Source: a virus (lineage: Duplodnaviria > Heunggongvirae > Uroviricota > Caudoviricetes). From it: 25,029 nucleotides of DNA. A program made the position numbers and the translations under genes. The notes below the pieces were generated by a model that saw only the letters and a program-made list of their open reading frames with translations, had not been told where the DNA came from and searched no databases. Numbering within the stretch: the first letter of the stretch is position 1; every line of letters starts with the position of its first letter. The DNA lies in IMG/VR virus record IMGVR_UViG_2802429227_000004, positions 1 through 25,029 of that record; one strand, written 5' to 3'. This document shows, one piece after another, positions 3,005 to 20,011 of this stretch.

Positions 3005-3023
3005 AGAATAGAAGGAGAAAACT

Positions 3024-3191: not shown

Positions 3192-3242
3192 TCCTCATTC
3201 ACTTTAGTAGCGCATTAAGCGTGATTTATAAGGAGATTTTTA

Positions 3243-3896: not shown

Positions 3897-3907
3897 TAAG
3901 GAGGGTT

Positions 3908-4186: not shown

Positions 4187-4318
4187 AATCTCTCTATGTA
4201 ATTAAAATATAAAAGGAAAACATTATTATGATAGTAGCTATGTATTGGTTATTGTTCTTTCTCACGTTAGAAACATATTTCGGGGTGTTTTCCTTTAAAA
4301 GAAAAGGAAAAGTAAATA

Positions 4319-4726: not shown

Positions 4727-4727
4727 T

Positions 4728-5063
4728 ATGAACAAAAACACGTATGACACAATTTATTCACTAATTAATTATTATGAGGATGATTACCTCCTGCCTTTAA
4801 ACCGTGCTGAACTTGAAGCACACAAAAACTCCACGCCAGCGGCACTAAATGAGGCGTTTAAACACTGGGATTTAGCTGTGAATGCCTTTGAGATGCTCTG
4901 TAAGCGTGTAGAGATGCTCTGTAAGCGTGAAAACGCATACCTGACAGCCGATCAGATATGGGAGCTATCAAACTGGATAGAAGATATTGAATCTGATGTT
5001 CGCTATGTGGGAGATGGCCTTATCGAACTCGCTCAACGCTTAGCCATTATCACAGAAGAATAA
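4728..5063 (+). CDS. Hypothetical protein (about 111 aa) containing a 21 bp tandem duplication
   Basis: ORF-track ORF 4701..5063; ATG at 4728 preferred because it follows the upstream stop with GGAGA about 10 nt upstream. In-frame tandem repeat gagatgctctgtaagcgtg at 4890..4931. Confidence 0.5.
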   Translation: MNKNTYDTIYSLINYYEDDYLLPLNRAELEAHKNSTPAALNEAFKHWDLAVNAFEMLCKRVEMLCKRENAYLTADQIWELSNWIEDIESDVRYVGDGLIELAQRLAIITEE

Positions 5064-5092
5064 AAAAAGCAACAAAAAAGTTGTAAAATATC

Positions 5093-5121
5093 TTGACATT
5101 TCATATATTGTATGTTAATAT
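5093..5121 (+). promoter_or_regulatory. Strong sigma70 consensus-like promoter
   Basis: TTGACA (5093..5098), 17 bp spacer, TAATAT (5116..5121). Confidence 0.6.
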
Positions 5122-5127
5122 AATTAT

Positions 5128-5345
5128 ATAGGGTGATTATTTTTCCTTTATTGGTTCGATATTAAAAATTCTTCTTGTCGTTAAAGGGGAGTAAAATCTC
5201 CGCTCCCCGCTTCTCCTCCTCCTTAAGTGTCATTATTACCTCTTTTTTCCTTTGTTATGCATACATCTTGGAGTATGCATAACATAGGGTAATTACATAG
5301 GTACAAGTTAATAAAAGGCGGCTCTAAATGCTGCCTTTTATTTTG
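5128..5345 (+). ncRNA. Candidate small RNA or structured leader/attenuator (about 215 nt) between promoter and intrinsic terminator-like hairpin
   Basis: Begins just downstream of the 5093 promoter; hairpin ggggag...ctcccc (~5186..5208); perfect palindrome ttatgcatac-N8-gtatgcataa (5255..5282); hairpin aaaaggcggc-tctaaat-gctgcctttt followed by a T-rich run (5313..5345); no convincing ORF on the + strand. Confidence 0.3.
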
Positions 5346-5406
5346 CCCGTTATACAACTTAAAAGTTGTATTTCTTACTTTAAACAAGGTAACAAGGTTT
5401 ATATAA

Positions 5407-5619
5407 ATGTTGTTTTTAAATGATAAAGAGCAAATCATCAAGTATCGCGATGAAATGCTAAAGATCAATCCACAAATTACCGAAATGGTAGCTAAATACG
5501 CTGGGTGTTCTGTCGAAGAAGTGGAACGTTGTGTTGAAAAATATTTTTCTCCTTCTTCTCCGTCTACACCTTCCCTTAATGAATTAATCAAATTAAAAGC
5601 TAAGGAGATTACTAAATGA
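5407..5619 (+). CDS. Hypothetical small protein (70 aa)
   Basis: ORF-track ORF; 4 nt ATGA overlap with the next gene suggests translational coupling. Confidence 0.45.
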   Translation: MLFLNDKEQIIKYRDEMLKINPQITEMVAKYAGCSVEEVERCVEKYFSPSSPSTPSLNELIKLKAKEITK

Positions 5620-5978
5620 TTATTGATTTAGACACTCTATTTCCAGTTCGAAAGACTTTCACAGATATTGTAAGTTATTGTACTGATCCGTTTGCCTCTG
5701 TAGAAAGCAAGGTTTTTGCTTCTCTTCCTGCTGATGTTGAATGCGGCGACTTGATCACCAGAACTGGCGCTAAATATGTATCAGGAGATGATATCTATGT
5801 TGTTATGAGTGAGTTTTTAACGGCTGGAGACAACAAGCCTGTAGATGTGCTACGTAGCAATGCTGGCCTTGTCTGCATCAAAGCTGATGCGCTGAATGCT
5901 GTAAGTGAAGCAGCAAAAACAGCATTAATTAAAAAAGGCTTCCAGCTTGAAGGGTTCCACTCTGTTTTCACTTCTTAA
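5616..5978 (+). CDS. Hypothetical protein (120 aa), first gene of a putative structural-like module
   Basis: AAGGAG RBS; tightly linked to the 342 aa gene. Confidence 0.55.
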   Translation: MIIDLDTLFPVRKTFTDIVSYCTDPFASVESKVFASLPADVECGDLITRTGAKYVSGDDIYVVMSEFLTAGDNKPVDVLRSNAGLVCIKADALNAVSEAAKTALIKKGFQLEGFHSVFTS

Positions 5979-5996
5979 TAAAAGGAATAATAATAA

Positions 5997-7025
5997 ATGA
6001 TTCTAGGCAATGATTACGTTGATTTGATCCCTCTGTTCCAGGCACACAACACTAGAAATTATCTACTCTCTACCCTTGATTTTACGGATTCTGTAGGGGT
6101 TACATCTCATAAAGTAGCTGTTTCCCAGCTTGTCGAAAGCAACGAATCTCTCTTTAACAAAGAGACAAGCCGTTTTAGTTCTGAACACAATGTTACTAAG
6201 CGTGAACAAGGTAAAGAATGGCTTATTGAAATCCCGTATTTTCTTCGTGAAGATGTGATCCGTCCTTCTGATGTTCAAGGCAAGCGTAAGCCTGGCACTG
6301 ATTTTCAGGAAACACTCACTGATATCTATGCTGACTATGTTGCTAAACACCACGTAGCGTATCAGCGTACAAAAGAGAGCGTGTTGGCGGCTTCTTTGTT
6401 CTCTGGCAAAACTTACACGCCTAAAACTGATGATGTTCTTATCGAGTGGGGCAAGCTGTTTAACGTATCAGCTATGAAAGCCACTGTGAACGCTTCCAGC
6501 ACTGACACCACGAAGATTTTTAAAGAATTTGATCAGATTGCTACCAATATTTTTGAAATCACACAAAGCCAGGCGTCAGCGGTAGAAAGAATTGTTGTTT
6601 TCTGTAAACCGGAAGCCTTCTCTGCAATTCGATTCTCTGCGGGTATGGCAAACGCATTCCAGTATGTAAGCCCACTGGAAGAAGGGAACGTTGTGTATCA
6701 GCGTCGTGACCTGCTGCCAGGGGTGACAGCGTTCACTATTCCAGGAACTAACATTGATGTTATTAAACTGGTAGATCCGCTACATCTTGCACATATGACC
6801 GCAGACGCTGTAGCTGTGCCTAAATTCGCTAAAGGCTCTAACGTATATCAGAACATCTACGGGGCTGCTTCCAGCACCTTTGAACTGATTAATGCCGCTC
6901 CCGCTGAGGTTTATAGCTACAGCTATGAATCTTCTCGTGGTGATGCTGTTAACGTTGTTACAGAGAATAGCCAGATGGTTGTAAACCACGGTGTAGGCTT
7001 CTCTGTTCAAATCACTGTGAAATAA
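5997..7025 (+). CDS. Hypothetical protein (342 aa); tentative homolog of the HK97-fold major capsid protein family of T7-like phages (gp10-like)
   Basis: Long ORF with RBS. Segment RIVVFCKPEAFSAIRFSAGMANAFQYVSPLEEGN (DNA about 6585..6700) matches, from memory, the T7 gp10 region RVFYCDPDSYSAILAALMPNAANYAALIDPEKG (pattern FCxPxxxSAI...MxNAxxY...EG); similar size to gp10A. Not verified by any search. Confidence 0.5.
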   Translation: MILGNDYVDLIPLFQAHNTRNYLLSTLDFTDSVGVTSHKVAVSQLVESNESLFNKETSRFSSEHNVTKREQGKEWLIEIPYFLREDVIRPSDVQGKRKPGTDFQETLTDIYADYVAKHHVAYQRTKESVLAASLFSGKTYTPKTDDVLIEWGKLFNVSAMKATVNASSTDTTKIFKEFDQIATNIFEITQSQASAVERIVVFCKPEAFSAIRFSAGMANAFQYVSPLEEGNVVYQRRDLLPGVTAFTIPGTNIDVIKLVDPLHLAHMTADAVAVPKFAKGSNVYQNIYGAASSTFELINAAPAEVYSYSYESSRGDAVNVVTENSQMVVNHGVGFSVQITVK

Positions 7026-7043
7026 TATTTTAACGTGTAATAG

Positions 7044-7080
7044 AGGCGTGGCGTGTATTCACGCTTCGCCTTTTTTTATT
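7044..7080 (+). terminator. Rho-independent terminator candidate after the 342 aa gene
   Basis: ggcgtggcgtg-tattc-acgcttcgcc imperfect hairpin followed by ttttttt. Confidence 0.5.
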
Positions 7081-7111
7081 TATTTTTTAAATTTTGAGAG
7101 GTGATTAAAAT

Positions 7112-7315
7112 ATGGAAGTGATTTTGAAATCAAAAAATGGTTTACACGTACATTTAGATGCTAATGATTCTAGAGGCTTGTTAAATCTGAAATATCTATG
7201 TTCTCTTTTAGATGTTCCATATGAAGGCGTAAAAGCCCGTATGTTCAGACTAAACGAGAGTATTGATCAGGCTCTACACCATTTCTTAAGTAAAGAAGGT
7301 GGTAAAAATGATTAA
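7112..7315 (+). CDS. Hypothetical small protein (67 aa)
   Basis: ORF-track ORF with GAGAGG RBS region. Confidence 0.45.
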   Translation: MEVILKSKNGLHVHLDANDSRGLLNLKYLCSLLDVPYEGVKARMFRLNESIDQALHHFLSKEGGKND

Positions 7316-7329
7316 TAAGGGGATTTTAA

Positions 7330-9162
7330 ATGTTAGAAATTAACACTTCTAAAATTAAGAACACAGTTACATTTAGTGTAGATAAAGACAGCTTGAAAAA
7401 AGCGAAAGACTCTATTACAGGCTTAAAGAAATTCGCCGAAAATATCAAGCCAGCTAAGCTGAGATTTGATAGTGTCACTAAAGGCTATAAGAAAGCACAA
7501 AGTGAAGTAGACAAGATTGCTCAACAGAAAGCTAAAACAGAAAAGCAGAATCAAAGAGCACAAGCTGCCGCAGCAAGAGCACAGGCAAGGCAACAGCAAC
7601 AAATAGCAGCACGTAAAGAGAAAGCAGAATTAAAGCTCCTCGATGTGTCAAGCTCTATCAGTGCAATGCACCGCCTTTCTGTAGCTGAACAATACAAAGC
7701 TATTGCACAGGCGCGTGAGATAGCCAAACAATACGAACAAGGGGCTATCTCGCTTGCACGTATGAATAGTCAGATGAAACGCCTACAACAGCAACAACGT
7801 AAGATTAATGGCAACAGAAAAGCTCAATTAGCCCCCGTTAAGGGAGGATCAGGGAATTCCGCCACGATGGGCGCTCTGTTATTTGGAGGCGCTACGGCTG
7901 CCGCTGGCGTGATGGCTGTTAGTAAAGCCTCTGAATTTATGGCTAACAGCTTCGCTAACGCAGAGACGCAAGGGGAGCTAATTCAACGGGCCAAGCTGGG
8001 CGGTGTAGACGTTAACCAGATGTATAATATTACAGAATGGGCGTATAAAAACGGCGTTGACTCTATGATGGGTGATCAAGGGGCTAGGAAATACCTGGAT
8101 CAGATGAAAGATGTTAGGGAACGTGCCGCAAAATCCTATAGTGAAGCTGAATTGGTGAAAGACAAGAAAACCGGAAAATCTGAATGGAAAGGCGGTGATA
8201 ACGCTATTAATGAACTTCTAAACATCGGTGTTATTAACAAAAGCGACCTTAAAAAATTTGCTGATAATCCGGCTGGATTAATTTCTAAGGCTGTTAATGG
8301 AATGATGAAAAAAGGGTTTTCAGACTCCCAAATTGGACAACGTTTAGAAGACCTGGGCGATGATTTGATGCTTACGTCAAAATATTGGCAACGTTCCGTT
8401 AAAGATGTACAAGAAAGTATTAATCAGCAAAAAGCCTCTGGAAAATGGCTAACAGAAACACAGCAAGACTCTATTGTTAAATTCAGAGAACTAAACAGAC
8501 AGCTTTCACAGCTTTCTGATGCAAGACAAGTAGCATTCGTAGACGGCTTTATGAAATCTCTTGATCCAAAAGTAACGGAAGAGTTTATGAAAAACCTTTC
8601 TAATCTCACTCCGTATTTTACGAAGCTGGGAGAAGCTACAGGAAGTCTCTTTGAGGCCATTATGAAGATTGTAAACTGGTTTAATCGTAATGATGATAAG
8701 ACAGATGCTATTCAGAAAAATTTAGGTGATGCACCGCCATTAAGCAATGACGGAATGAAACAGCATCTTTCTAATCTCGTTCCTGATCAATATAAAGGCG
8801 CTGGCACTGCAACAACAGCACCTGATAATAGTCATTCTCTCTTTAATACGATTAAGGGATGGCTTTTCGATGATAATGCTTCTTCTGTGTCAGATGTAAA
8901 AATGTCAGTCAATGAAGCACCGATAAGCAATCTCAAACAGGGTGCTTTAAATAATCTTGCAATGACAACTCCGGCTTATAATTTATCTCCTGTGTTTAAT
9001 CTGAATCCTACATTTGAAGTGGTAACAGAGGTTCCTCTTACTATTAATTCAGACACATCAAGATTAAGCGATTATGTGGATTTTACAGCGAGAGCAAGTC
9101 GGGATAGCTTCTTGAAATCATTAACATTAACCAGCTTATCAGGACAATCTAACGGCGGGTAA
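7330..9162 (+). CDS. Hypothetical large protein (610 aa): N-terminal K/Q/A-rich coiled-coil region, Gly/Ala-rich hydrophobic segment, then C-terminal globular region; tape-measure-like or ejection/internal-virion-like architecture (tentative)
   Basis: AAGGGG RBS; AQAAAARAQARQQQQIAARKEKAELK coiled-coil-like stretch; GGSGNSATMGALLFGGATAAAGVMAV hydrophobic segment; no Walker or nuclease motifs seen. Confidence 0.6.
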   Translation: MLEINTSKIKNTVTFSVDKDSLKKAKDSITGLKKFAENIKPAKLRFDSVTKGYKKAQSEVDKIAQQKAKTEKQNQRAQAAAARAQARQQQQIAARKEKAELKLLDVSSSISAMHRLSVAEQYKAIAQAREIAKQYEQGAISLARMNSQMKRLQQQQRKINGNRKAQLAPVKGGSGNSATMGALLFGGATAAAGVMAVSKASEFMANSFANAETQGELIQRAKLGGVDVNQMYNITEWAYKNGVDSMMGDQGARKYLDQMKDVRERAAKSYSEAELVKDKKTGKSEWKGGDNAINELLNIGVINKSDLKKFADNPAGLISKAVNGMMKKGFSDSQIGQRLEDLGDDLMLTSKYWQRSVKDVQESINQQKASGKWLTETQQDSIVKFRELNRQLSQLSDARQVAFVDGFMKSLDPKVTEEFMKNLSNLTPYFTKLGEATGSLFEAIMKIVNWFNRNDDKTDAIQKNLGDAPPLSNDGMKQHLSNLVPDQYKGAGTATTAPDNSHSLFNTIKGWLFDDNASSVSDVKMSVNEAPISNLKQGALNNLAMTTPAYNLSPVFNLNPTFEVVTEVPLTINSDTSRLSDYVDFTARASRDSFLKSLTLTSLSGQSNGG

Positions 9163-9195
9163 TTCCCGCCATAACATTACAAGGAAATTATTATT

Positions 9196-9909
9196 ATGGC
9201 GACCGCCGGGATTTTAACCATACGTGCAGCAAATACTCCAGAACAACACGTTCAGGCTGTTTACAAAGCAGAACAAGATATAAACTCTACAAAAAACGAA
9301 AATAGCAAAGCTAATAAAACAAAAGGAGAAAATGGATTTGCTATTGTTACCAGTGGGCTGGCATCTTCTGGCAATGACGTTTATGAAAATTATATGGCAC
9401 TGGCTTTTGACAGTGTAGACGATGTGAACGTGAGACGTTCGGCAGATGTTACAAGCTACCCCGTAGAAAATGGTGCTACTGTGTCTGATCACGTTCAAAT
9501 TAAAAACAATAAGTTTTCTCTTAAAGGTAGGATCACTGAAACACCGATTAAAAGCGATCCTGGCTTGCTAAAGAGTGCAGGGGTGAACGGGAACAGAAGA
9601 TCATTAGCTATTGATTACCTGAATCAGATTATGGACAGTAGACAGCCTTTTCTTCTTGTTACAGAAAATAAAACTTTTGAGAACGTTGTTTTAACAGGCA
9701 TCGAATACACAGAAGAGGCAAGCGAATCCCTGGTATTTGATCTTAGCTTTGAGCAGATCAGGCTCGTTTCGTATGGCACTGTAAACACTGTAGCTATCAA
9801 AACACAGCCATCTAAGAACATCGGGGCTAATATGAAAAAACGTGTTAACACTGAAAAATCAAGTAGTGAAGGTGAAGACACTATTACTCCTGCCTTTAAA
9901 CAGGAATAG
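9196..9909 (+). CDS. Hypothetical protein (237 aa), last gene of the + strand operon
   Basis: AAGGA RBS; no signal peptide; followed by an inverted repeat shared with the convergent integrase gene. Confidence 0.55.
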   Translation: MATAGILTIRAANTPEQHVQAVYKAEQDINSTKNENSKANKTKGENGFAIVTSGLASSGNDVYENYMALAFDSVDDVNVRRSADVTSYPVENGATVSDHVQIKNNKFSLKGRITETPIKSDPGLLKSAGVNGNRRSLAIDYLNQIMDSRQPFLLVTENKTFENVVLTGIEYTEEASESLVFDLSFEQIRLVSYGTVNTVAIKTQPSKNIGANMKKRVNTEKSSSEGEDTITPAFKQE

Positions 9910-9950
9910 CCGTAAACGCCTCTAAAACGCTCTGTAACGATGTAATTATA

Positions 9951-9984
9951 AAAGAGGCTACCAATCTATGTTGAAGCCTCTTTA
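9951..9984. terminator. Inverted repeat between convergent genes (possible bidirectional terminator)
   Basis: aaagaggct ... agcctcttt, a perfect 9 bp stem with a loop of about 16 nt. Confidence 0.35.
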
Positions 9985-9990
9985 TTGCGT

Positions 9991-11325
9991 CTATGGCGTT
10001 GTTTTACGCCTTAAATTTGATTTTTTATTGATTGATAAGCCTTTCTCTATTTCAGGGTAGCGTAGAAGCTCAATATATTTTTTAAGCTCTACTGGAGAAG
10101 CTGCATTCTTGCTATATGTGCGGAATGTCTCTGTATTACCGCGTGTATGGCCCAGGAGAAGGGCGATCCTGTCTTCTGGAATTTGATTTCGATCAAGAAG
10201 CTGTGCTACTCCGTGTCTCAGAGAATGAAACACCTTCCTTTCTGTTCCCTTTTCCCCTAAAGCCTTTCGTTTAGCCCTGGTAAATCTCTGCGTGTGCCAC
10301 GTGGAACGCTTGCCGTCTGCACGTTCTGTGATGCTGGCGTGATAGAACAAAAAGCCATTATGAGGCTTTTCACGCAGCGACAACACCAACGGAGTGATAA
10401 GGCTATGTACAGGCACAACACGTGCCGCAGCTTTCGTTTTTCCCTGTGTGATTTCAAAACACAGCACACCTTCGATCTCTTTCACATCGTCTATTGTGAG
10501 ACTTGCTATCTCATTGATCCGCATACCTGTATATAAACCGATAAGACACAAAGCCATCATTTCTTTGTTTTCTGCTGAATTACCGGAAAATACTTGCAAC
10601 ACCTGCAATAGCTCTTTGTTAGAAAATGCCTCGTAGCTCTCTCTACTTTGTGCCACATCAAGCCTATGCCCTCGCCAGGGGGAGAGCGCCCTTTCTGGTG
10701 CATCGTGGTAACGTGATGAAGCTAACTCCCATAGCTGGGCCATTGGGCTGATATAATTTGCAATTGATTGTTGTGAAAGGGTTTTTTGCATGTGTTCAAT
10801 CCAGCCTGTAACAGTGGTGCGGCTCACATCTTGCAATGCAATATCAGGCTTTTTACGGTAGGAGAGAAACATCTCTACCGCTTTTCTTGCCTTAGCTAAA
10901 GTGGCTGGCTTCTTCTTCGTGCTGTTAATTGTCAGGTAGATTTCAAGAATTTTAAGCAATGACGGACACGAAGACGCTGTATCTTGCATTCTGGTAGCTG
11001 TTTTGGCGTATTTAGCCTTACTGCGTAACAGCTCCAGCGTGTTCTCTATTGTGCTGTTTACAGGAGCGACACTCTCGCGTAAGCAATGGTATTCATCTGC
11101 AATCTGATCACGCTTTCTACGTGCAACACGAAGGTTACTTGTATGCAGACTCCTGACAAACGTCCTTTTTCCTTCAAAAAAGGGCTGCATATACACAGGC
11201 AGCGTGATCCTTAGATAGTAGTTACCGTAAGAATCACAGATTATGTATTGATTGGGCTTGTATCTCATAAACTCCCCGGCTAAAGTGTCGGAGCGTTTGT
11301 AATGTGAAAATTGATTGTAACGCAT
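9991..11325 (-). CDS. int: Tyrosine site-specific recombinase (integrase), 444 aa as given; alternative start at the second Met (about 11268)
   Basis: C-terminal catalytic signature: GMRINE (Arg), HSLRHGVAQ (His-x-x-Arg), LLGH (His), TFRTYSK (Tyr nucleophile). Confidence 0.85.
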   Translation of the reverse strand: MRYNQFSHYKRSDTLAGEFMRYKPNQYIICDSYGNYYLRITLPVYMQPFFEGKRTFVRSLHTSNLRVARRKRDQIADEYHCLRESVAPVNSTIENTLELLRSKAKYAKTATRMQDTASSCPSLLKILEIYLTINSTKKKPATLAKARKAVEMFLSYRKKPDIALQDVSRTTVTGWIEHMQKTLSQQSIANYISPMAQLWELASSRYHDAPERALSPWRGHRLDVAQSRESYEAFSNKELLQVLQVFSGNSAENKEMMALCLIGLYTGMRINEIASLTIDDVKEIEGVLCFEITQGKTKAAARVVPVHSLITPLVLSLREKPHNGFLFYHASITERADGKRSTWHTQRFTRAKRKALGEKGTERKVFHSLRHGVAQLLDRNQIPEDRIALLLGHTRGNTETFRTYSKNAASPVELKKYIELLRYPEIEKGLSINKKSNLRRKTTP

Positions 11326-11447
11326 AGAAAATGATGATTTTTTCTATAAGATTCAATCAATTAGTAATGGTCGTAGGTGATGGCATTAACACGAGATTAA
11401 TCGAGTGTTTTACTCCTATTATCGGCACCATTCTAACGTCTCCCCAA

Positions 11448-11597
11448 GTCTACTCAAGTATTTAAAAAACTCTTATAATCCGCATGTTAGCGCCCCTTTT
11501 AGTCTTTTGATGTCTACTTAAGTACCCCAAAATCTACAGTCAATTGGGGGTACTTTTGGGGGTATTTGCTGTTCGGTTTAGTGGAGGTACCCCCAAG
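11448..11597. repeat. Direct and inverted repeats in the 271 bp spacer between the two integrase genes (candidate att core or integrase binding sites)
   Basis: gtctactcaagta (11448..11460) and gtctacttaagta (11512..11524); inverted pair taccccaaaa (11523..11532) / ttttgggggta (11553..11563); extra ggtacccccaag at 11586..11597. Confidence 0.5.
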
Positions 11598-12811
11598 TGA
11601 AACTCAATGCCCGTCAAATAGACACTGCCAAGCCAAAAGAGAAGGCTTACAAGCTGGCTGATGGTGGTGGTCTGTATCTCTTGGTAAAACCTAGTGGAGG
11701 AAAATATTGGCGCTTCAAATATCGTGTAGCTGGTAAAGAGAAGCTGTTAGCACTAGGTGTGTATCCTGAAGTTACCTTGGCTGATGCTCGTGCAAAACGT
11801 GAAGAAGCTAAAAGGGGGATCGCTGGGGGTATCGATCCGATGGAAGCGAAACGAGAGGAAAAGATTGCCCGGGAAACGCAGTTAAACAACACCTTCAAAG
11901 ATATTGCCCTTGAGTGGCACAGCAGCAAATTAAAAAAATGGTCTGCTGGTTATGCTTCAGACATCCTCGAAGCCTTCAACAAAGATGTGTTCCCTTACAT
12001 TGGCAAAAAACCAATCGCCGAAATCAAACCACTTGAACTGCTGAATGTGCTGCGGCGCATCGAGGGGCGCGGTGCTACCGAAAAAGCCAAAAAAGTGAGG
12101 CAGCGATGCGGGGAAGTTTTCCGCTATGCAATTGTCACTGGACGTGCTGAGTATAACCCTGCACCGGATCTCACCAGCGCGATGCAAGGTCATGAATCTA
12201 ATCATTATCCTTTCCTCACAGCCAAAGAATTACCTGATTTTTTCAAGGCATTGTCCAGTTACTCAGGAAGTGCATTGGTTGTTATGGCGGCTCGTCTACT
12301 GATTATCACCGGTTTGCGGACTGGCGAACTGCGCGGTGCATTATGGGATGAAATCGATCTCAACAAGGCTATCTGGGAGATACCTGCTTCACGGATGAAA
12401 ATGCGTCGCCCTCATGTGGTGCCTTTGTCTAAGCAGGCTCTTTCGCTTATTGGGCAGATTAAAGAATTAACTGGCAATTATCCGCTTATGTTTCCCGGCC
12501 GTAATGATCCAAGGAAAACAATGAGCGAGGCTAGCATAAACCAAGTATTTAAACGCATCGGCTATAACGGAAAGGTTACTGGTCATGGATTCCGGCACAC
12601 CATAAGCACCATTTTGCATGAGCAGGGCTATAACACCGCGTGGATAGAGACACAGCTCGCACACGTCGATAAAAACTCAATTCGTGGCACATACAACCAT
12701 GCGCAATATCTGGATGGTCGCCGGGAGATGCTCCAGTGGTATGCCGACTATATGGATTCGCTCGAGCATGGCGGAAATGTGGTGCATGGTGAGTTCGGAA
12801 AATGCGGGTGA
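11597..12811 (+). CDS. int: P4-type tyrosine integrase (404 aa), GTG start
   Basis: N-terminus KPKEKAYKLADGGGLYLLVKPSGGKYWRFKYRVAGKEKLLALGVYPEVTLADARAKREEAK is the hallmark arm-binding domain of P4-family integrases; catalytic HGFRHT ... QLAHVD ... RGTYNHAQY. Confidence 0.9.
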   Translation: MKLNARQIDTAKPKEKAYKLADGGGLYLLVKPSGGKYWRFKYRVAGKEKLLALGVYPEVTLADARAKREEAKRGIAGGIDPMEAKREEKIARETQLNNTFKDIALEWHSSKLKKWSAGYASDILEAFNKDVFPYIGKKPIAEIKPLELLNVLRRIEGRGATEKAKKVRQRCGEVFRYAIVTGRAEYNPAPDLTSAMQGHESNHYPFLTAKELPDFFKALSSYSGSALVVMAARLLIITGLRTGELRGALWDEIDLNKAIWEIPASRMKMRRPHVVPLSKQALSLIGQIKELTGNYPLMFPGRNDPRKTMSEASINQVFKRIGYNGKVTGHGFRHTISTILHEQGYNTAWIETQLAHVDKNSIRGTYNHAQYLDGRREMLQWYADYMDSLEHGGNVVHGEFGKCG

Positions 12812-12909
12812 CTGGTTGAGTATACAGTAGTAGACTTTGAGCACCTAAAAAGGCTGATGCAAACAGAGCTGGCTCGGCCTTAACATTAGACCGCTTGAAG
12901 GGGGAGAAT

Positions 12910-13626
12910 ATGCCAATTGTGGAAAACATTCCTGACTTATCCCACTGGCGAACAATACAGGAGTTTTCTATCACCCAGGCCGCTTTATTGTTGGCCGGAA
13001 TTGATCCTTATGATTACCCTACTCTTGAACATGTCAGAGATAATAAACATGAACGTTGGAAAATGGCATGGGGGTTGGCTAATGGAATGGTAACAGCCAT
13101 CCGTCGTGGTGTCTTAACTCCTGTTGAATGTACCTCTGAAATAGTTGAATACGATAATTGGGGAAATGTTTGTGATATTGAGTACAAACGTCTGACATCA
13201 GCGCAACTGACCGATCGTGCATATGAGATAAGCAAGGATAAAACTTTAATTAGTCGCCATTCTTTATATGAGTGGATAAAAAATGAGAGCGTTGATTTTG
13301 CGAGATGCCCTCGCCCTATACCTGTTAAGGAAGTTAATCCGCCAGCAATCATTGAATCATCTCATCAGGTAATTAATCCTGACGAGTATTTGTGTACTTA
13401 TGGGCATAAGAGTGATGGGTTGGAGTATGTGCAGGATGCTATAAGAGAACTATGGTCGACGTATGACCCAGATGACCCACAGACGGCTCCGACAGAGCAT
13501 GAGGTACTTGAATATTTGAAAAAACGGGGGGCGGGTTCTAATGTTGCTAGGGCTGTGAATCTGATTTTAAGGCCTGAACATCTGAAGCGTATTGGTAGAA
13601 GACCAAAAAAACAAAAAGTTAAATAG
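12910..13626 (+). CDS. Hypothetical protein (238 aa) between int and alpA
   Basis: ORF-track ORF 12895..13626 begins at a TTG; ATG at 12910 preceded by AAGGGGGAG is preferred. No recognised motifs. Confidence 0.6.
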   Translation: MPIVENIPDLSHWRTIQEFSITQAALLLAGIDPYDYPTLEHVRDNKHERWKMAWGLANGMVTAIRRGVLTPVECTSEIVEYDNWGNVCDIEYKRLTSAQLTDRAYEISKDKTLISRHSLYEWIKNESVDFARCPRPIPVKEVNPPAIIESSHQVINPDEYLCTYGHKSDGLEYVQDAIRELWSTYDPDDPQTAPTEHEVLEYLKKRGAGSNVARAVNLILRPEHLKRIGRRPKKQKVK

Positions 13627-13881
13627 TGGTCGCTATTCCAGAAAAATGGTGGTTTCCTTTCAAAAAAAAGTAACCACCAATGCAGATTAAATCGTAAGAA
13701 CAGTAATTTTTCTTCGTGTTTCACGTCAGCATGATACTTAAAATAGTAAACGCCATTATTAAAAAAAGGTGGAGCTATTTCACTGAAATGGTATTCGCCA
13801 TTCATAATGGTAAGCATCTATAAATATCACTTTTCTTAATGCAAGCTATGTACACCTTTATAGACGTTACAAGGTGAATAT

Positions 13882-14079
13882 ATGGCAAACTCTCTTATTC
13901 GTTTAACGGAAGTTCAGCGTAGAACTGGATATAGCAAGGCATGGATTTATCGCCTTATGGGGCAAGGTAAATTTCCTGCATCAGTTAAAATTGGCTCGCG
14001 AGCTATTGCTTTCGTTGAGAGTGAAATTGACGAGTGGATTAATCAGCGTATTGCGGAATCACGCGGAACAGCTACCTGA
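13882..14079 (+). CDS. alpA: AlpA-family phage transcriptional regulator/excisionase-like protein (65 aa)
   Basis: LIRLTEVQRRTGYSKAWIYRLMGQGKFPASVKIGSRAIAFVESEIDEWI matches the AlpA HTH family; position just after a P4-type int; AAGGTGA RBS. Confidence 0.85.
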   Translation: MANSLIRLTEVQRRTGYSKAWIYRLMGQGKFPASVKIGSRAIAFVESEIDEWINQRIAESRGTAT

Positions 14080-14157
14080 TTAAATGGCTACGGGGCCAGA
14101 AGCCCCAACTATCCACTAGCAAATAAAAAGTAACTTAATTCGATAGCAGGAGTTTTT

Positions 14158-15006
14158 ATGAAACAGCGAAAAACGCCCGTACAGGGGCAGGGCTTCGTTC
14201 GGCCTGAAAACCAGAATCTGCAAAATTTCGGCGAAATTATCCCGGTTATTTCCGGCGTTATTGGCGGACGTGAAACCAATATTGTTAGCGCCAGAGCGTT
14301 GCATAAGGCGCTGGGTGTGAAGCGTGATTTCACAACCTGGATTAAAGGACGCATTGATGAGTACGGATTTAAAAAGGGCGTGGATTTTGAAGTTGTAGAT
14401 AATTTGTACTTTGATTCCCCGAAACGGGGGAACCAAAGTGTAAATATTGAACAGTTTGATTTTGATTGGACAACAAAGCGCGGCGGTGATCGTCGCAGTG
14501 AAGACTATTTGATCTCCACGAACATGGCGAAAGAACTGGCGATGGTCGAGCGCACCGAACAGGGCCGCGCCGATCGTCAGTACTTCATCAAATGCGAGGA
14601 GGAGCTACACAAGGTAGCGCCAGTGCGTTCCGCAGCGTTACGCCGGGAACTGAAAGCCCGTATCTCCGTTGCCAGCTACTTTAAGCCGATGTGTGCCGCG
14701 CTGGAGGCGTACCGGGCTGAACTGGGTAAAAACACACTCCAGCACCACTACACCACGGAAGCCAATATGCTGGCGCGTATCGTGCTGGGTGGCATGACTG
14801 CAAAACAGTGGACGCAGGCGAACGGCATCACAGGCGAACCACGCGACCACATGAGCACGTTGCAGCTTGAGCACCTTTCTTACCTTGAGCAGAGCAATAT
14901 CACGCTGATTGAGTTAGGCCTGGACTACCACCAGCGGAAAGCTGAATTAATTCGTCTTTCGCAGCGTTGGTTAGCCCGTCGCATGGAGGAAAACAGCCAT
15001 GTGTAA
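14158..15006 (+). CDS. Phage antirepressor-like protein (AntA-like N-terminal domain, KilA-C-like C-terminal region), 282 aa
   Basis: Segment VSARALHKALGVKRDFTTWIKGRIDEYGFKKGVDFEV resembles AntA/Rha-type antirepressor N-terminal domains; AGGAG RBS. Confidence 0.65.
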   Translation: MKQRKTPVQGQGFVRPENQNLQNFGEIIPVISGVIGGRETNIVSARALHKALGVKRDFTTWIKGRIDEYGFKKGVDFEVVDNLYFDSPKRGNQSVNIEQFDFDWTTKRGGDRRSEDYLISTNMAKELAMVERTEQGRADRQYFIKCEEELHKVAPVRSAALRRELKARISVASYFKPMCAALEAYRAELGKNTLQHHYTTEANMLARIVLGGMTAKQWTQANGITGEPRDHMSTLQLEHLSYLEQSNITLIELGLDYHQRKAELIRLSQRWLARRMEENSHV

Positions 15007-15420
15007 CGCTCTGACCGTTACAAAAAGAGAAAGCGCCCCGTTGCCGGAGCGCCTTTGTGAACGAATAGCCTACTGCGCCATATTGCTTACTGTCTACGAG
15101 GCAGATTATAGCGTTGTGGTCGCACAGAGTGAAGGCGCTGATCACCGTTACTACAGCACGCCAGAAATGCAGAATATTTTGCTGCAAAATGTCGTTGGTC
15201 ACGCTGTCCGGAAAGCAAAAAATTTTGCTGGTGGCGCGACTGATGCGATTTTGTCAGGTCGCAAGGTGATGATCAATCTGATGTCTAATTTCGTTCTGGA
15301 TAAAACAAAGGCGACCGCAGAGGGCCACCAGTGGGAAAGCTACACACTTGAACACATCGCCAACAATGCCAGATTTGCGGCTGGTGGGCAATGTGATCAG
15401 TGTGCTGGCTTGCTGGTGGG
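14999..15420 (+). other. ORF of uncertain extent; only about the first 130-140 codons of the 512 aa ORF-track call look protein-like, and the 3' end is undefined
   Basis: Start overlaps upstream stop as ATGTGTAA. After about codon 140 the translation becomes Cys/Ser/Arg-rich low complexity and runs across a well-supported minus-strand gene (15679..15984) and into gene 16172..16537 in the same frame. Confidence 0.25.
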
Positions 15421-15678
15421 CTATTCCTGCTCTTTAACATTGCCATGCCGCGATGTTTTCCAGGTATGCGACCCCATTTTTGTGCGCCTGTACTCTTTAA
15501 GGAATTTCTCAAGGATAAACGCACAGGGCGCGAATCTGTCTGACTCATATTCGTACGCTATCTTTCTGCGCTGTCTTTTCCGTGCCGGTGATGGTGTATT
15601 GGTCGATTCTTTGTTGGTCATTCTGTGTACCTGTAAAGCAATGCGCCGGAGTTCCTCACACCACGGCGATGATAGTTA

Positions 15679-15984
15679 TTATTCTGATTCTTTGGCCTTG
15701 CGGCGCTGGAGTTCTTCACGTGCGACGGTGACGAGCTGCCCGATCTCCTCGACAGCTTTGACTCCGATTTTTTCCACCTGCGCCAGTGCATTGAGCGAAG
15801 AAACCAGGGGATTTTCTCCGCTTCCTTCTGCCTGGCGGCGGGCGATCTCACCACGCATGGCGGTTACTATGAATCCGGCGTTGCTTTCGCCGTCCAGTTT
15901 TACGGATTCCATGCCTTCAAAAGCATCATGTGGGATACGAATTGAAATCTGTTTTGATTTGTCGTTGATAGTGTTTTTTGCCAT
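15679..15984 (-). CDS. Ribbon-helix-helix-like DNA-binding protein (101 aa), candidate repressor divergent from the replication operon
   Basis: AGGAGA RBS 6 nt upstream of the ATG at 15982..15984 (ORF-track call 15679..16023 uses an upstream Met without RBS); KQISIRIPHDAFEGMESV strand-helix pattern. Confidence 0.65.
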   Translation of the reverse strand: MAKNTINDKSKQISIRIPHDAFEGMESVKLDGESNAGFIVTAMRGEIARRQAEGSGENPLVSSLNALAQVEKIGVKAVEEIGQLVTVAREELQRRKAKESE

Positions 15985-16171
15985 GTGCATTCTCCTAAAC
16001 AAAAGATGTGATTCAGTATACACAAAAAAGAATCACAAAAAATACTTGACCTGTGATTCAGTTAAATTTAATTTAAATCACACCTCAGTAAGAGGATATA
16101 AACGACAACGCCCCGAACTGTTTGCGGCAGTAGCGGGGCGTCTAACCAAACCGTTAAATGAGGTAACGATT
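15985..16171. promoter_or_regulatory. Divergent promoter/operator region with TGTGATTCAG repeats
   Basis: gatgtgattcagtatacac (~16005), gaatcacaaaa (~16030), cctgtgattcagttaaat (~16049), aaatcacacc (~16075); TTGACC -35-like element at ~16045. Confidence 0.5.
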
Positions 16172-16537
16172 ATGGCTGGGGCACAGCATACCCAAACTCA
16201 CCCTAAATTTATATACACCTTCCTGGCGGTGCACCGTGATTGCATGGCTGACGGTAAAAACACTGTTCATGTAGCCGCCGATACGCTGGTTGATGCCTGC
16301 GAGATGCTCAATGACATGGGCTATATCTCGGCAACATGGAAAGGGCGCGAAGAAAACACGTTGTTTATTCAGAAATGCGAAAACAATTTTATCTGGCGTT
16401 TTATCGCCCTGAGTACGGCACAACCGCGCGTGATTCACATCGAGGCCACCAGCGAACAGGAAGCACGCCAGCAATCTCCTGATGGCTGCGTGATGGTATT
16501 CGCTGCCCGTATTCGCCAGGAGGTGGAGCATGTGTAA
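16172..16537 (+). CDS. Hypothetical protein (121 aa), first gene of the small-gene/primase operon
   Basis: GAGG RBS then ATG at 16172; in the ORF track this is the in-frame tail of the 14999..16537 ORF. Confidence 0.6.
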   Translation: MAGAQHTQTHPKFIYTFLAVHRDCMADGKNTVHVAADTLVDACEMLNDMGYISATWKGREENTLFIQKCENNFIWRFIALSTAQPRVIHIEATSEQEARQQSPDGCVMVFAARIRQEVEHV

Positions 16538-16754
16538 TGCAACATGGCCTGATGCAGCGGTAGACGCTATCAAAACGCTGATGGATTCACTTATTGAGAT
16601 TTCTGCTATCGCTGGTGTGGCGCATAAACACGCAGCCAGAGAATCAGAATGCATCTCCCATTATTTAGCATTTGTGCAGCTGAAAGCCGATCAGGCACTG
16701 GATAAGGCCGGAAAAATTATCATGGCTGATGTACAGGAGGTGCACCATGCATAA
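16530..16754 (+). CDS. Hypothetical small protein (74 aa)
   Basis: Start overlaps upstream stop as ATGTGTAA (16530..16537). Confidence 0.55.
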   Translation: MCNATWPDAAVDAIKTLMDSLIEISAIAGVAHKHAARESECISHYLAFVQLKADQALDKAGKIIMADVQEVHHA

Positions 16755-17112
16755 CCTGTCAATTTCTGACCTTAACAGCATTCAGTTTGACGAGATATTT
16801 TCCGGGCAGCTACTGGTTAACGTGGAGAATGGACGCGTGGTAAGTAATTATCACCTGCCGGATGGTGCAATTGCCGGAAGCGTTGAAGCATTGCTGGAAC
16901 TGGCGGAACGTGCGCGACTGATTAAGCCGTCAACGTGCCATCACGATGATGATCTGCATTTTACCGGGTGTATGGTGAGTCACTACGAAAACGGCGTTGA
17001 AGTATCCTGCGAACGTCTGCGTGATGATTGCTGTTTCGGCACACTGCCGGAATTTATCGAATTGCTGACCAGTTGCGGTTATCAGGTCATTCAGGGGGGT
17101 AAACATGCGTGA
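16747..17112 (+). CDS. Hypothetical protein (about 121 aa)
   Basis: GGAGG RBS; ATG at 16747 overlaps upstream stop as ATGCATAA; ORF-track call starts 18 nt earlier. Confidence 0.55.
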   Translation: MHNLSISDLNSIQFDEIFSGQLLVNVENGRVVSNYHLPDGAIAGSVEALLELAERARLIKPSTCHHDDDLHFTGCMVSHYENGVEVSCERLRDDCCFGTLPEFIELLTSCGYQVIQGGKHA

Positions 17113-17338
17113 TGATCGTTTTAATTCCCTGAAACAGGAGTTTGATGGCGCACCGGAAGATACATCGGGCGCATTGTTGAGCATTGCTGACATGATGAAA
17201 GCTGCATATTTTCTTATCAATACCAGGGGCTACAAGTCAGAGGGTGAAATGATTCTTAGTATTGCGTCGGACTATGCTGAATATGTGGCAGAGACGCGTT
17301 ACAGAAGAAAATCTCTGGAGGATGTAAGCCATGCATAA
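17105..17338 (+). CDS. Hypothetical small protein (77 aa)
   Basis: Start overlaps upstream stop as ATGCGTGA (17105..17112). Confidence 0.55.
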   Translation: MRDDRFNSLKQEFDGAPEDTSGALLSIADMMKAAYFLINTRGYKSEGEMILSIASDYAEYVAETRYRRKSLEDVSHA

Positions 17339-17531
17339 TCATGAAGCGCATGTACCCGTAGTGCTTAATGTGCCAGATGATTTCACCGGACGCGTGCTGG
17401 TTTACCTTGATAAAGAAAAAGTGAAATCACAATGCCGACTGAAAAGTAATGAGATTGTGGGTTCTCCTGAATTTTTTTCTGAACTCTGTATTCGTGCAGA
17501 AATAAAACCGGAACTGCTGACAGGAAAATAA
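17331..17531 (+). CDS. Hypothetical small protein (66 aa)
   Basis: Start overlaps upstream stop as ATGCATAA (17331..17338). Confidence 0.55.
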   Translation: MHNHEAHVPVVLNVPDDFTGRVLVYLDKEKVKSQCRLKSNEIVGSPEFFSELCIRAEIKPELLTGK

Positions 17532-17535
17532 AACC

Positions 17536-17826
17536 ATGAAAAGGAAAAATTCTGGCTTTACTGCCAGCGGTCTCTCTCGGCCTGAAATCAGACACGGAGA
17601 TATTTACCGCGACACCAGACGTGGGGGACGAGTGGTTATTCGTCACGTTACGCCAGGCAATATCACCTACCGCCGTGAGGCTTACGAATATGACTGCGTA
17701 ATGCCGCGCCGTCAGTTTGAGCGTGATTTTATTCTGGTGGAAAACAAACAACAGGCAGTGGCGAGACGTGCAGCCACGAATATTAAAAAAATCCGGGCAA
17801 TGTTGGTTGCGGGAGGTAAGAAGTGA
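17536..17826 (+). CDS. Hypothetical basic protein (96 aa) immediately upstream of the primase
   Basis: ATG 5 nt after the upstream stop; 4 nt GTGA overlap with the primase gene start. Confidence 0.55.
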   Translation: MKRKNSGFTASGLSRPEIRHGDIYRDTRRGGRVVIRHVTPGNITYRREAYEYDCVMPRRQFERDFILVENKQQAVARRAATNIKKIRAMLVAGGKK

Positions 17827-19628
17827 AAAACGCACCGAATTTAAAATATCAGCCGAAGGATAAATTCACCGAGGTAATCATTTTTGCCGGGACGGATGCT
17901 TACGCCCATGCTCAACACTGGATTGAAAGCGAAGGACGAAAACACGGCGATAACGTGCCTCCTGTTTACCTGGGGCCAAAGCAACTGGCAGACCTGGCGA
18001 ATATCCGCATTGTCGACGATGAACGCCGCTTTGCGCGTGTCTATCTCGCGGGGGAGATAGAGCCAATCCAGATCAATGCTATTGCTGAAAAGCTGGCGCT
18101 GGCTGGTGTACAGGACGCGAAATTATACAAAGGTATCACCGACCGGGAGCCGGAAAACTGGCGCGACTACCTGCAACGGATCCGCGAACAGGCAGAGAGT
18201 GGGGAAGTTTCAGCGATGAAATTAGCCACAAAAAATATTGACCTATCTAGGCCAGCACTAAATCAGATGGGAGCCAGCCAGAGAGGGGAAGTGTTACTTG
18301 AATATTATGGAAGAGCACTGGCTATAAATGATGATTCTGATGTAGTTCACCATTACAACGGAATTGTCTGGGTGCCTGTATCTGATAAGGAACTCCAGCG
18401 GTCTATGGCGAAGATTTTTATTGATGCTGGAATCAGTTATTCGCAAAACGCCATTAAATTTGCCGTAGACACAATGAAATTGAGCCTGCCTGTTATGGGC
18501 GGGGCAGACAGGAATCTTATTGGATTCAGTAACGGGGTATTTGATACCCGGACGGGAAATTTTCGGGAGCATAACAAAAATGACTGGTTGTTAAATGCCA
18601 GTGAATTACCGTTCAGCCCACCAGCAGAGGGGGAAACGCTGGCAACACATGCGCCGAATTTCTGGAAGTGGCTGCGTCGTTCGGTGGCAGATAATGATCG
18701 TAAAGCTGATCGCGTACTGGCGGCATTATTCATGGTGCTGGCGAACCGGTACGACTGGCAGTTATTCCTTGAGGTAACAGGCCCAGGCGGAAGCGGTAAA
18801 AGTGTGATGGCTGAGATTTGTACCATGCTGGCGGGTAAGGCCAACACAGTATCGGCAAGCATGAAGGCTCTGGAAGACGCAAGGGAACGCGCGTTAGTAG
18901 TTGGCTTTTCGCTGATTATCATGCCGGATATGACTCGCTACGCTGGCGATGGTGCAGGAATTAAGGCAATTACTGGCGGCGACAAGGTGGCAATTGATCC
19001 GAAACATAAAGCCCCCTACTCCACACGTATTCCGGCAGTAGTGCTTGCGGTAAACAATAACGCCATGTCATTCAGTGACCGAAGCGGGGGGATCTCGCGT
19101 CGTAGGGTGATATTTAATTTCTCTGAGGTCGTACCGGAGAACGAACGCGATCCCATGCTGGCGGAAAAGATAGAAGGCGAACTGGCGGTAGTGATTCGCC
19201 ATTTGCTAACACGATTTACCGACCAGGACGAAGCTAAAAGACTACTTTATGAGCAGCAAAAATCAGAAGAAGCGCTGTTGATAAAGCGCGAAGGTGATTC
19301 ACTGGTGGACTTTTGCGGCTATCTGATGTCGTTGGTTAAATGTGAAGGAATGATGGTGGGCAATGCGGAAATAGTGCCATTTAGCCCGAGGCGATACCTG
19401 TATCATGCTTATTTAGCCTATATGTCAGCGCATGGCCTGGGAAAACCAGTATCACTGACACGCTTTGGTACTGATATGCCAGGAGCTATGGCGGAATACG
19501 GAAAGGAGTATAAGCGGGCTAAATGCACTAAAGGCCCGGATAAAGGGCGAGTGATAACAAATGTTCTGTTAGATGATGATGCTGATGGCTGGTTGCCAGC
19601 AGCTACAGGGATTAACGACAGAACATAA
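17823..19628 (+). CDS. Phage/plasmid primase-helicase, P4 alpha/D5 family (601 aa)
   Basis: Walker A P-loop VTGPGGSGKSV in the C-terminal half; overall size and architecture of satellite pri-rep proteins; followed by an iteron origin. Confidence 0.8.
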   Translation: MKNAPNLKYQPKDKFTEVIIFAGTDAYAHAQHWIESEGRKHGDNVPPVYLGPKQLADLANIRIVDDERRFARVYLAGEIEPIQINAIAEKLALAGVQDAKLYKGITDREPENWRDYLQRIREQAESGEVSAMKLATKNIDLSRPALNQMGASQRGEVLLEYYGRALAINDDSDVVHHYNGIVWVPVSDKELQRSMAKIFIDAGISYSQNAIKFAVDTMKLSLPVMGGADRNLIGFSNGVFDTRTGNFREHNKNDWLLNASELPFSPPAEGETLATHAPNFWKWLRRSVADNDRKADRVLAALFMVLANRYDWQLFLEVTGPGGSGKSVMAEICTMLAGKANTVSASMKALEDARERALVVGFSLIIMPDMTRYAGDGAGIKAITGGDKVAIDPKHKAPYSTRIPAVVLAVNNNAMSFSDRSGGISRRRVIFNFSEVVPENERDPMLAEKIEGELAVVIRHLLTRFTDQDEAKRLLYEQQKSEEALLIKREGDSLVDFCGYLMSLVKCEGMMVGNAEIVPFSPRRYLYHAYLAYMSAHGLGKPVSLTRFGTDMPGAMAEYGKEYKRAKCTKGPDKGRVITNVLLDDDADGWLPAATGINDRT

Positions 19629-19655
19629 TACGAAATTTATAAGCTGAAACGTAAA

Positions 19656-19991: not shown

Positions 19992-20011
19992 TTGTAACGA
20001 TGGGGCAAAGC

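Follow-up and report, generated by a model that had tools for sequence, protein, structure and literature searches.

Tandem accretion of mobile elements at the transfer RNA (tRNA) gene thrW is already well documented. Phage SfI integrates at the thrW-proximal attachment (att) site, attL, of a resident SfX (Sun et al. 2011, PMC3306764), and Escherichia coli O157:H7 carries tandem prophages at thrW, where strain differences result from the loss of one tandem member (PMC9997748). Tandem satellites and additional integrases are also a recognised complication in satellite detection (PMC10085698). Here we describe a thrW locus in which two elements, referred to as A (left) and B (right), meet within a window of 25,029 bp (positions 1 to 25,029 of the IMG/VR record IMGVR_UViG_2802429227_000004), the DNA of which is E. 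coli chromosome. We conclude that the 271-bp spacer between the integrase genes of A and B is very probably a hybrid att site, formed when two unrelated elements integrated site-specifically and in tandem at the 3′ end of thrW.

As in SfI/SfX and in O157:H7, the target is thrW downstream of proA, and two elements stand in series with an internal att copy. In place of related phages that have similar integrases, however, the locus described here holds two small, satellite-sized islands, whose integrases are approx. 23% identical. In a further difference from SfI/SfX, their int genes are placed at opposite ends of the elements and face each other across a shared core. Element A also resembles CP4-6 of E. 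coli K-12, with its integrase IntF: both have thrW as the target and a distal minus-strand integrase gene, which adjoins a partial thrW copy (attR) and reads inward. The integrase of A is, however, only ~24% identical to IntF (E 2e-5), and since this similarity is confined to the catalytic domain, it was rejected as an IntF ortholog. The CP4-6 repeat reaches the anticodon loop (at least 37 bp, ~47 bp as read), whereas that of A comprises 20 bp and starts in the T-loop, which, following Williams (2002), implies that the position of the crossover within the tRNA differs between the two.

The closest match to the window (NZ_CP178552) places it immediately downstream of proA and thrW, and window positions 9000-14000 were matched in 1,476 of the 5,426 complete E. 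coli genomes that formed the comparative set. ARAGORN found no tRNA gene in the window, nor did Rfam at gathering thresholds find anything there, a full tRNA gene included. To this extent the original prediction, which had reported that no tRNA was visible, was correct; it overlooked an exact copy of the last 20 bp of thrW (ACTCCTATTATCGGCACCAT) within the spacer. This core comprises the T-loop, the 3′ strand of the T-stem, the 3′ acceptor strand and CCA plus one base, and no second exact match occurs in the window (chance expectation, 0.00). It equals the 3′ end of thrW exactly in L001, K-12, 55989 and contig L028, and thrW of the best-matching genome ends with ...GGTTCGACTCCTATTATCGGCACCA. 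The prediction had also advised that matching repeats be sought beyond both ends of the window. Upstream, in contig L028 (GCA_002965925.2; 100% identity to window 1-17025), thrW, a tRNA-Thr(CGT) gene, ends 605 bp before position 1, and the 20-bp core sequence is there too. Downstream of position 25029, a degenerate right-end core of B was found, in relatives only. Direct repeats of the tRNA 3′ end therefore flank each element, with one copy common to both (the right one of B being that seen in relatives). Element A is bounded by two identical 20-bp cores, 12,035 bp apart, and its integrase gene is the last one, reading inward.

Both integrase genes adjoining the core are uninterrupted, and candidate active-site motifs (R, K, HxxR, H, Y) can be read by eye in both translations (TGMR, HSLRH, LLGH and RTY in the integrase of A). 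The A protein matches Pfam Phage_integrase (E 1.4e-17), DUF6538 and SAM_5, as well as PHROG 1 (integrase). The B protein contains the arm-DNA-binding, central and catalytic domains of the P4-type (CP4-57/P4) family (Arm-DNA-bind_3, 3.6e-29; Phage_int_M, 1.2e-34; Phage_integrase, 6.1e-26), its active-site residues being candidates. Its similarity to NCBIfam PRK09692 (E 1.6e-91) amounts to 307 bits, below the curated cut-off of 434, and its coordinates agree with a RefSeq coding sequence in L001. The two integrases are ~23% identical (E 0.004) in the catalytic domain alone; this alignment, as well as that with IntF, spans ~160-175 residues. The claims that two unrelated tyrosine integrases are present and that the right one is P4-type are thus borne out. 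The description of the genes as “back to back” is wrong if tail to tail was meant, for they are divergent, with their 5′ ends facing each other (head to head). The distance of 271 bp holds with the longest open reading frame (ORF) and becomes 328 bp with the second ATG, as in the RefSeq annotation of a homolog. The int gene of A starts 87 bp from the core (minus strand) and that of B 165 bp from it (plus strand); the placement of each gene beside its own arm of the shared core accounts for both the divergent orientation and the short distance. The compositional break noticed earlier is real (the G+C content rises across the junction from 38.7% on the left side to 45.7% on the right), but modest, and each side is itself heterogeneous.

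Comparison with genomes lacking either element, proposed as a check in the original prediction, placed the boundaries of both elements at the core. For this purpose synthetic junctions were designed, which should exist only if an element can sit alone at thrW. The junction of thrW with the left arm and int gene of B was present in one piece in 570 of the complete genomes (99.1-99.7% identity among the best 30 of the 570). In the annotation of strain 55989, thrW is directly followed by the integrase gene of a 15.3-kb B, and A is missing. The junction of the 5′ end of the A int gene, the core and the ancestral K-12-type yagP-side flank was found in one piece in 275 genomes, such as that of strain ET915, whose locus reads thrW-A-core-yagP and is devoid of B. 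The actual A/B junction was recovered from 71 genomes, and a full-length B int gene is present in 17 of these. Among the partial matches sampled, alignments begin at query position 783 (window 11412) or stop at 802-807 (window 11431-11436), i.e. the breakpoints coincide with both edges of the 20-bp core.

The order and INDEPENDENCE of the elements were assessed from strains O104:H4 2011C-3493 and 55989, plus strain PT62. Of the 21 annotated B genes, all except the Icd-like one have identical RefSeq protein accessions in the first two strains, as do the adjacent flanking genes. An A-family element lies between thrW and B in O104:H4, but not in its relative 55989, and because of this difference we consider that A-type elements come and go while B stays. 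These closely related strains of sequence type 678 (ST678) differ solely by the presence or absence of the left element. This observation, together with the independent distribution of the two elements, leaves the suggested co-mobilisation of A and B without support. The reverse order, B-A, occurs inside a longer array in strain PT62. The arrangements in O104:H4 and PT62 both agree with the rule established by experiment for SfI and SfX at this tRNA gene.

That A and B are two separate elements, and not one composite, follows from the core copy, the core-bound element ends and the independent occurrence of each. The tandem integration at one locus that had been suggested is thereby upheld, with three att copies and with each element found alone at thrW elsewhere. 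The layout reads: proA, thrW (attL of A), A (12.0 kb) with its integrase gene last and directed inward, the 20-bp core, and B. In this arrangement the core very probably acts both as attR of A and as attL of B, the P4-type integrase gene of B comes first, and the degenerate right-end core of B would lie past the window. Following the newcomer rule of SfI/SfX (integration at the tRNA-proximal attL), B would have been resident first and A would have entered the regenerated intact thrW later, so that the newest arrival is nearest to the tRNA gene. Each element would be expected to excise separately, by means of its own integrase. The predicted attP junctions of the circles are ...CGAGTGTTTT-ACTCCTATTATCGGCACCAT-CAAGAAAATC... 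for A and ...TTGTTCCTATTATCGCACCAT-TCTAACGTCTCC... for B.

The two arms of the hybrid site differ in content. That on the A side adjoins the core in genomes with A only and is missing from those with B only, in which matches begin exactly at 11412. The direct and inverted repeats reported for the spacer are present and exceed chance expectation. GTCTACTYAAGTA occurs twice (11448-11460 and 11512-11524; 0.04 expected), and TTGGGGGTA/TACCCCCAA in three exact copies within 53 bp (0.13 expected). Motifs of the TTGGGGGTA type are found at 11523-11531 (minus strand, one mismatch), 11544-11552 and 11556-11564 (plus) and 11588-11596 (minus); the fourth directly adjoins the GTG start codon of the B integrase gene. 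All of these repeats lie on the B side of the core; they are present in the B-only strain 55989 and absent from the A-only strain ET915. They were proposed to be att cores or arm sites. The former was ruled out by their confinement to the B side and absence from A-only genomes; the latter is consistent with the recurrence of TTGGGGGTA at the far end of B, where pairs of the motif are placed ~60-80 bp before the right-end core in L001, 55989, L031 and L033. Since the motif flanks both ends of B, and the integrase of B has an arm-binding domain, the TTGGGGGTA repeats fit the role of candidate arm-type sites for this integrase. The GTCTACTYAAGTA pair is limited to the int-proximal arm. On the A side, an imperfect 22-bp palindrome, AACACGAGATTAATCGAGTGTT (11388-11409), ends two bases short of the core and may be bound by the A integrase or by a regulator; a search of the left arm of A gave no sequence that matches it. 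A promoter scan of 3.2 kb, including the spacer, was uninformative (4 sites versus 5.3 expected).

Several observations weigh against the tandem reading, or against parts of it. Exact-match scans of IMG/VR and the JGI metagenomes for the excised attP of A gave nothing. A single match resembling the attP of B was rejected as an excised circle, since it proved to be a chromosomal array, in which B is followed by an island with a truncated B-type integrase. Only chance-level matches of 8-10 bp are shared by the two arms of A, i.e. no arm-type repeats for its integrase were recognised there. The order of arrival is not readable from the junction, because the outcome is identical whether A integrates into attL of B or B into attR of A. 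Moreover, the right end of B is seen in relatives only, the nearest of which is 99.5-99.8% identical to window 14520-25029.

The array may also have been inherited whole. According to the most serious alternative, which we regard as doubtful although by no means negligible, it is real but was imported or re-assorted by homologous recombination, and one or both of the integrases may be inactive. Such a history would be in keeping with the mosaic structure of island regions at thrW, the many genomes with truncated B-type integrases at this locus and the lack of excised forms in the scans described above. The right-end core of B, moreover, is one base shorter than the thrW core as the result of a deletion. 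Both integrase ORFs are, however, uninterrupted and retain candidate active-site motifs, and the two cores of A are identical over 20 bp. The 1-bp deletion recurs in four independent flanks, which suggests a feature of the attP of B and not decay. Besides, this alternative concerns the history of the array in one strain and not the nature of the structure.

It is highly improbable that A and B form one composite element, which has two integrases and a single outer att pair (thrW and the right end of B) and moves as a unit. The adjacency of the int genes, the retention of the A/B junction in 71 genomes and the outer cores at thrW and at the right end of B would agree with such a composite. It does not account for the exact core copy between the integrase genes, nor for the presence of each half alone at thrW with boundaries at the core and the occurrence of both orders. 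In addition, the outer sites of a composite would carry arms of different elements, so that neither integrase would have a full set of arms. The original prediction had named a single att pair enclosing both integrases as the finding that would contradict two elements; what was found instead is an att copy lying between them.

Nesting and capture had been considered in the original prediction. As insertion of B inside A, or as uptake of the A integrase gene by B or by an adjacent island through illegitimate recombination without any att site, they are scarcely tenable. The composition does shift close to the junction. In genomes that have A without B, however, the end of A falls on the identical base, with an unchanged 20-bp core and then the ancestral chromosomal flank, and the relatives show no stretch of A on the right-hand side of B. 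The junction is a copy of a tRNA 3′ end, a signature of site-specific recombination, and the distribution of the elements is independent (570, 275 and 71 genomes), with both orders and breakpoints at the core.

The tandem structure shows how islands accumulate one after another at a tRNA gene, each seam being marked by a partial copy of the tRNA. It provides exact boundaries for two elements that are merged or missed by annotation pipelines, and these boundaries may be used to delimit thrW islands in pathogenic E. coli; the same junction is present in O104:H4, in APEC O1 and in strains with the vat island. The coordinates of the features are given in Table 1.

Table 1. Features of the tandem thrW locus (positions refer to the 25,029-bp window)
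Feature	Position	Strand	Remarks
Element A	1..11411	+	part within the window; 12,035 bp in full; thrW-proximal; left end and thrW upstream of position 1
Candidate replication origin of A	1467..1660	+	five ~23-bp iterons (ACCCCCACAGAATTCTGTTAGAC), then AT-rich short tandem repeats
Rep-like winged-helix protein of A	3243..3896	+	217 aa; PHROGs replication initiation / O-like families
Structural gene block of A	5997..9909	+	capsid, 67-aa ORF, tape-measure, tube-initiator
Major capsid protein homolog	5997-7025	+	Pfam Phage_cap_E
67-aa ORF	7112-7315	+	between capsid and tape-measure homologs
Tape-measure homolog	7330-9162	+	610 aa; PDB 21vq, phi92 gp134, E 2.2e-38
Tail-tube-initiator homolog	9196-9909	+	237 aa; Pfam Dit_like; PDB 21vq, phi92 gp135, E 2.1e-78
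Integrase of A	9991..11325	-	DUF6538-type tyrosine recombinase, 444 aa; 425 aa from second ATG at 11268
A-side arm of the hybrid att site; leader of A int	11326..11411		G+C content 30%
att core	11412..11431	+	ACTCCTATTATCGGCACCAT, identical to the last 20 bp of thrW; probable attR of A and attL of B
B-side, int-proximal arm of the B att site	11432..11596		GTCTACTYAAGTA direct repeat and four TTGGGGGTA-type motifs
Element B	11432..25029	+	P4/PICI-type satellite-like island; ~15.3-16.9 kb in relatives; right end outside the window
Integrase of B	11597..12811	+	P4-type, 404 aa, GTG start
AlpA	13882-14079	+	Pfam; element B
AntA	14158-15006		element B
D5/P4-family primase	17823-19628	+	element B
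ProQ/FinO	20000-20542		Pfam; element B

The structural genes of A relate this element to large lytic phages; its tape-measure and tube-initiator homologs correspond to two neighbouring genes of phi92 (gp134 and gp135). In tblastn searches against Justusliebigvirus and Phapecoctavirus genomes, identities of 58-61% were obtained for the tube initiator and of 34-37% for the tape measure, and the capsid protein could be aligned end to end with the phi92 capsid gp124 (21.6% identity). These relatives are strictly lytic phages of 145-151 kb, phi92 being a 148-kb lytic myovirus. PDB entry 9zbi was rejected as a solved structure of the A capsid, as it represents a distant homolog (E 5.5e-11 over residues 26-217). 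No genes for portal, protease, terminase, connector, sheath or tube were detected in A with Pfam, PHROGs and NCBIfam.

Satellites termed cf-PICIs (capsid-forming PICIs) are equipped with an entire module for head formation and packaging but lack tail genes. Like them, A is small and integrative and encodes its own major capsid protein homolog. Unlike them, it has the capsid homolog as the sole detected part of a capsid and packaging module, without matches to portal, protease, connector or terminase, and carries two tail-assembly homologs, for which reasons A was not assigned to this group.

The iterons (1467-1600) of the candidate origin of A, each with the palindrome ACAGAATTCTGT, are located in an ORF-poor region (900-2800; 1.9 kb), where ORFs do not exceed 73 aa and Rfam gave no match. 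The Rep-like protein was recognised by PHROGs (best E 3.3e-10), while its match to Pfam HTH_36 is weak.

Two patches of A are shared with lytic phages at 100% identity. The first, of 239 nucleotides (window 3012-3250), is found in phage muut and contains a 55-aa ORF identical to muut gp095. The wider region of similarity, which includes the Rep domain discussed below, is window 3012-3596, with the phage loci L019 (muut), 3001-4230, and L020 (Mt1B1_P17), 2960-4026. The second, a GC-rich segment of 40 nucleotides, TTGCGAGAGGTGCTTAACGCGATTTTCAGCGCCCCCCGAT (window 523-562), corresponds to a non-coding-looking stretch of Justusliebigvirus genomes, covered there by tiny, dubious ORFs alone; a common cis-acting function of this segment in packaging or regulation is conceivable. 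Because of these two patches, recent exchange between A and lytic phages is indicated. Five copies of ATAAATAGCT (450-502) precede TTGCGAGAGGTGCTTAACGCGATTTTCAGCGCCCCCCGAT in A.

Another link to these phages involves a nuclease, for which the Vibrio satellite PLE and its phage ICP1 offer a parallel: the ICP1 protein Odn, a T5orf172 nuclease with an N-terminus 42% identical to the PLE RepA_N domain, cuts the satellite origin (Barth et al. 2021, PMC8263062). As judged here from the genes alone, A resembles PLE in being a small integrative island with a candidate iteron origin and a Rep-like winged-helix protein. As in the case of Odn, a lytic-phage protein joins Rep-type DNA-binding domains to an endonuclease domain (GIY-YIG superfamily, T5orf172-like). 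In gp053 of phage Mt1B1_P17 (328 aa), residues 1-119 are 82% identical to the winged-helix domain of the A Rep-like protein (its N-terminal 119 aa), residues 119-210 are 88% identical to the corresponding domain of A′, a variant of A described below, and the C-terminus contains the endonuclease domain (PHROG 681, E 2e-18; Pfam MUG113 borderline, T5orf172 sub-threshold). The two satellite domains are only 18% identical to each other, and gp094 of muut has the same architecture as gp053. Unlike in Odn/PLE, the identities are far higher (82% and 88%), and two Rep-type domains, matching two A-family alleles, are combined in one phage protein. Further points that set A apart from PLE are its tyrosine integrase, with a tRNA gene as the target, and its own capsid, tape-measure and tube-initiator homologs.

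We consider the chances about even that A is the founding case of an undescribed family of satellites of Stephanstirmvirinae (phi92/Justusliebigvirus, Phapecoctavirus), which are large and strictly lytic coliphages, a proposal that is based on sequence comparisons; in the literature searched, no paper on a satellite of phi92 or of Stephanstirmvirinae phages was found. If so, A would be resident at thrW and, upon infection, would be excised by its DUF6538-type integrase and replicated from the iteron origin through the Rep-like winged-helix protein. Its divergent capsid, tape-measure and tube-initiator proteins would combine with helper parts into particles, and the phages would counter with an Odn-like endonuclease bearing the DNA-binding domains of two satellite Rep alleles. 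The locus would then be a tRNA gene at which two satellites, each with a helper of its own, have accumulated, one integrase marking each satellite.

The competing explanation, according to which A is what decay has left of a temperate phage and has no life of its own, is possible, although we find it the less convincing of the two. The unrecognised portal, terminase, protease, sheath and tube genes fit a remnant, as do the RefSeq names of A genes (“major capsid protein”, “phage baseplate protein”) and the listing of such regions in IMG/VR as proviruses from isolate genomes. Against decay stand the size of ~12 kb and the gene order kept between att sites in E. coli, the latter recurring in a Phytobacter contig. 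Contigs of Enterobacter, Buttiauxella and Kluyvera also carry adjacent tape-measure and tube-initiator homologs (with the integrase in the Enterobacter contig as well), the A-family proteins outside E. coli having identities of 27-54%, and variants within E. coli share the integrase even though their capsids are 18-19% identical. Further arguments against a temperate remnant are that the structural homologs point to strictly lytic phages of 145-151 kb, that A has a candidate iteron origin and a Rep-like gene, and that the patches of 239 and 40 nucleotides indicate recent exchange.

Were the satellite interpretation of A correct, E. coli would offer a tractable counterpart of the Vibrio PLE/ICP1 system, in which a natural phage nuclease appears to have gathered two satellite-derived DNA-binding domains. 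Phages related to phi92 are candidates for therapy, and a resident satellite interfering with them would matter in practice.

The variant A′ was identified in O104:H4 2011C-3493 (L005, 8566-21525). Its integrase and gene order are nearly the same as those of A, while the capsids of the two are 18-19% and the Rep domains 18% identical. The tube initiator of A′ is closest to Phapecoctavirus and that of A to Justusliebigvirus; the capsid of A′ had no PDB match. A fully syntenic A-family element fills almost the whole of a 13,988-bp contig of Phytobacter sp. V91 (L024).

Element B shares several features with P4-like satellites and Gram-negative PICIs (PMC10085698): a P4-type integrase gene beside a tRNA copy, AlpA, a P4-family/D5 primase-helicase, a size of ~15-17 kb, no virion genes and variable cargo at the far end (e.g. 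a pair encoding an AAA ATPase and a DUF4435 protein in 55989). As in Gram-negative PICIs, which have a size of about 10-18 kb, its int, AlpA and primase genes are all on the plus strand, within 15.3-16.9 kb. In contrast to P4-like satellites, B gave no Sid, Psu or Delta homologs with Pfam or PHROGs among the ORFs scanned in the window, a set that comprised not all of the small ORFs and nothing past position 25029. In SatelliteFinder, P4-like satellites are defined by int, alpA, alpha/primase, sid, psu, delta and epsilon, of which sid, psu and delta serve in capsid-size and helper control. Because no homologs of these three were detected, B was not filed as P4-like in the strict sense. On its gene content, the layout of B is that of a PICI/P4-like satellite, and it may belong to either family. 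The gene content further includes a PerC-family regulator, taken from the RefSeq annotation of homologous genes, and an Icd-like peptide. PADLOC defence-system models had no match among 10 unannotated ORFs of A and B.

The right-end core of B in relatives reads GTTCCTATTATCG-CACCAT, which is the core minus one G, and is preceded by a TTGGGGGTA pair. In L031, which is 99.5-99.8% identical to window 14520-25029, it is located ~3.27 kb past the window end. Because of the 1-bp deletion, it was missed by a search allowing substitutions only, which returned no third copy of the 20-bp core at this end, and was found once an indel was allowed. The deletion occurs with four right flanks, namely the ancestral one (55989), a divergent one (WWCOL-236), a truncated B-type integrase with the vat island (IMG/VR L007 and L031) and the left arm of A (PT62). 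Its recurrence in these independent contexts suggests that it is intrinsic to the attP of B and does not reflect decay. Strand exchange of B would accordingly take place in CACCAT, the very 3′ terminus of the core, on the 3′ side of the deletion.

Strain PT62 (L021, 6269-36152) contains a four-part tandem array at thrW, consisting of a partial tRNA copy (from the anticodon loop), a B-type element, the degenerate core, A, the core and CP4-6-like genes. The integrase gene of A is split by IS3 in this strain.

An ORF of 512 aa (window 14999-16537) has as its lone recognisable part a C-terminal Icd-like domain (residues 464-507). The equivalent region of relatives contains Icd-like genes ranging from 67 aa to extended versions of ~180-300 aa, and small minus-strand genes beneath the N-terminal part of the long ORF, which may not be a real gene. 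Finally, in L031 (15050-15560) and L007 (8913-9426) the right-end core of B is followed by a second B-type integrase gene, truncated after ~112 aa, and beyond it by a MarR gene and a gene for a Vat-type autotransporter. The B of the window thus probably sits upstream of an older, decayed island with the same type of integrase.

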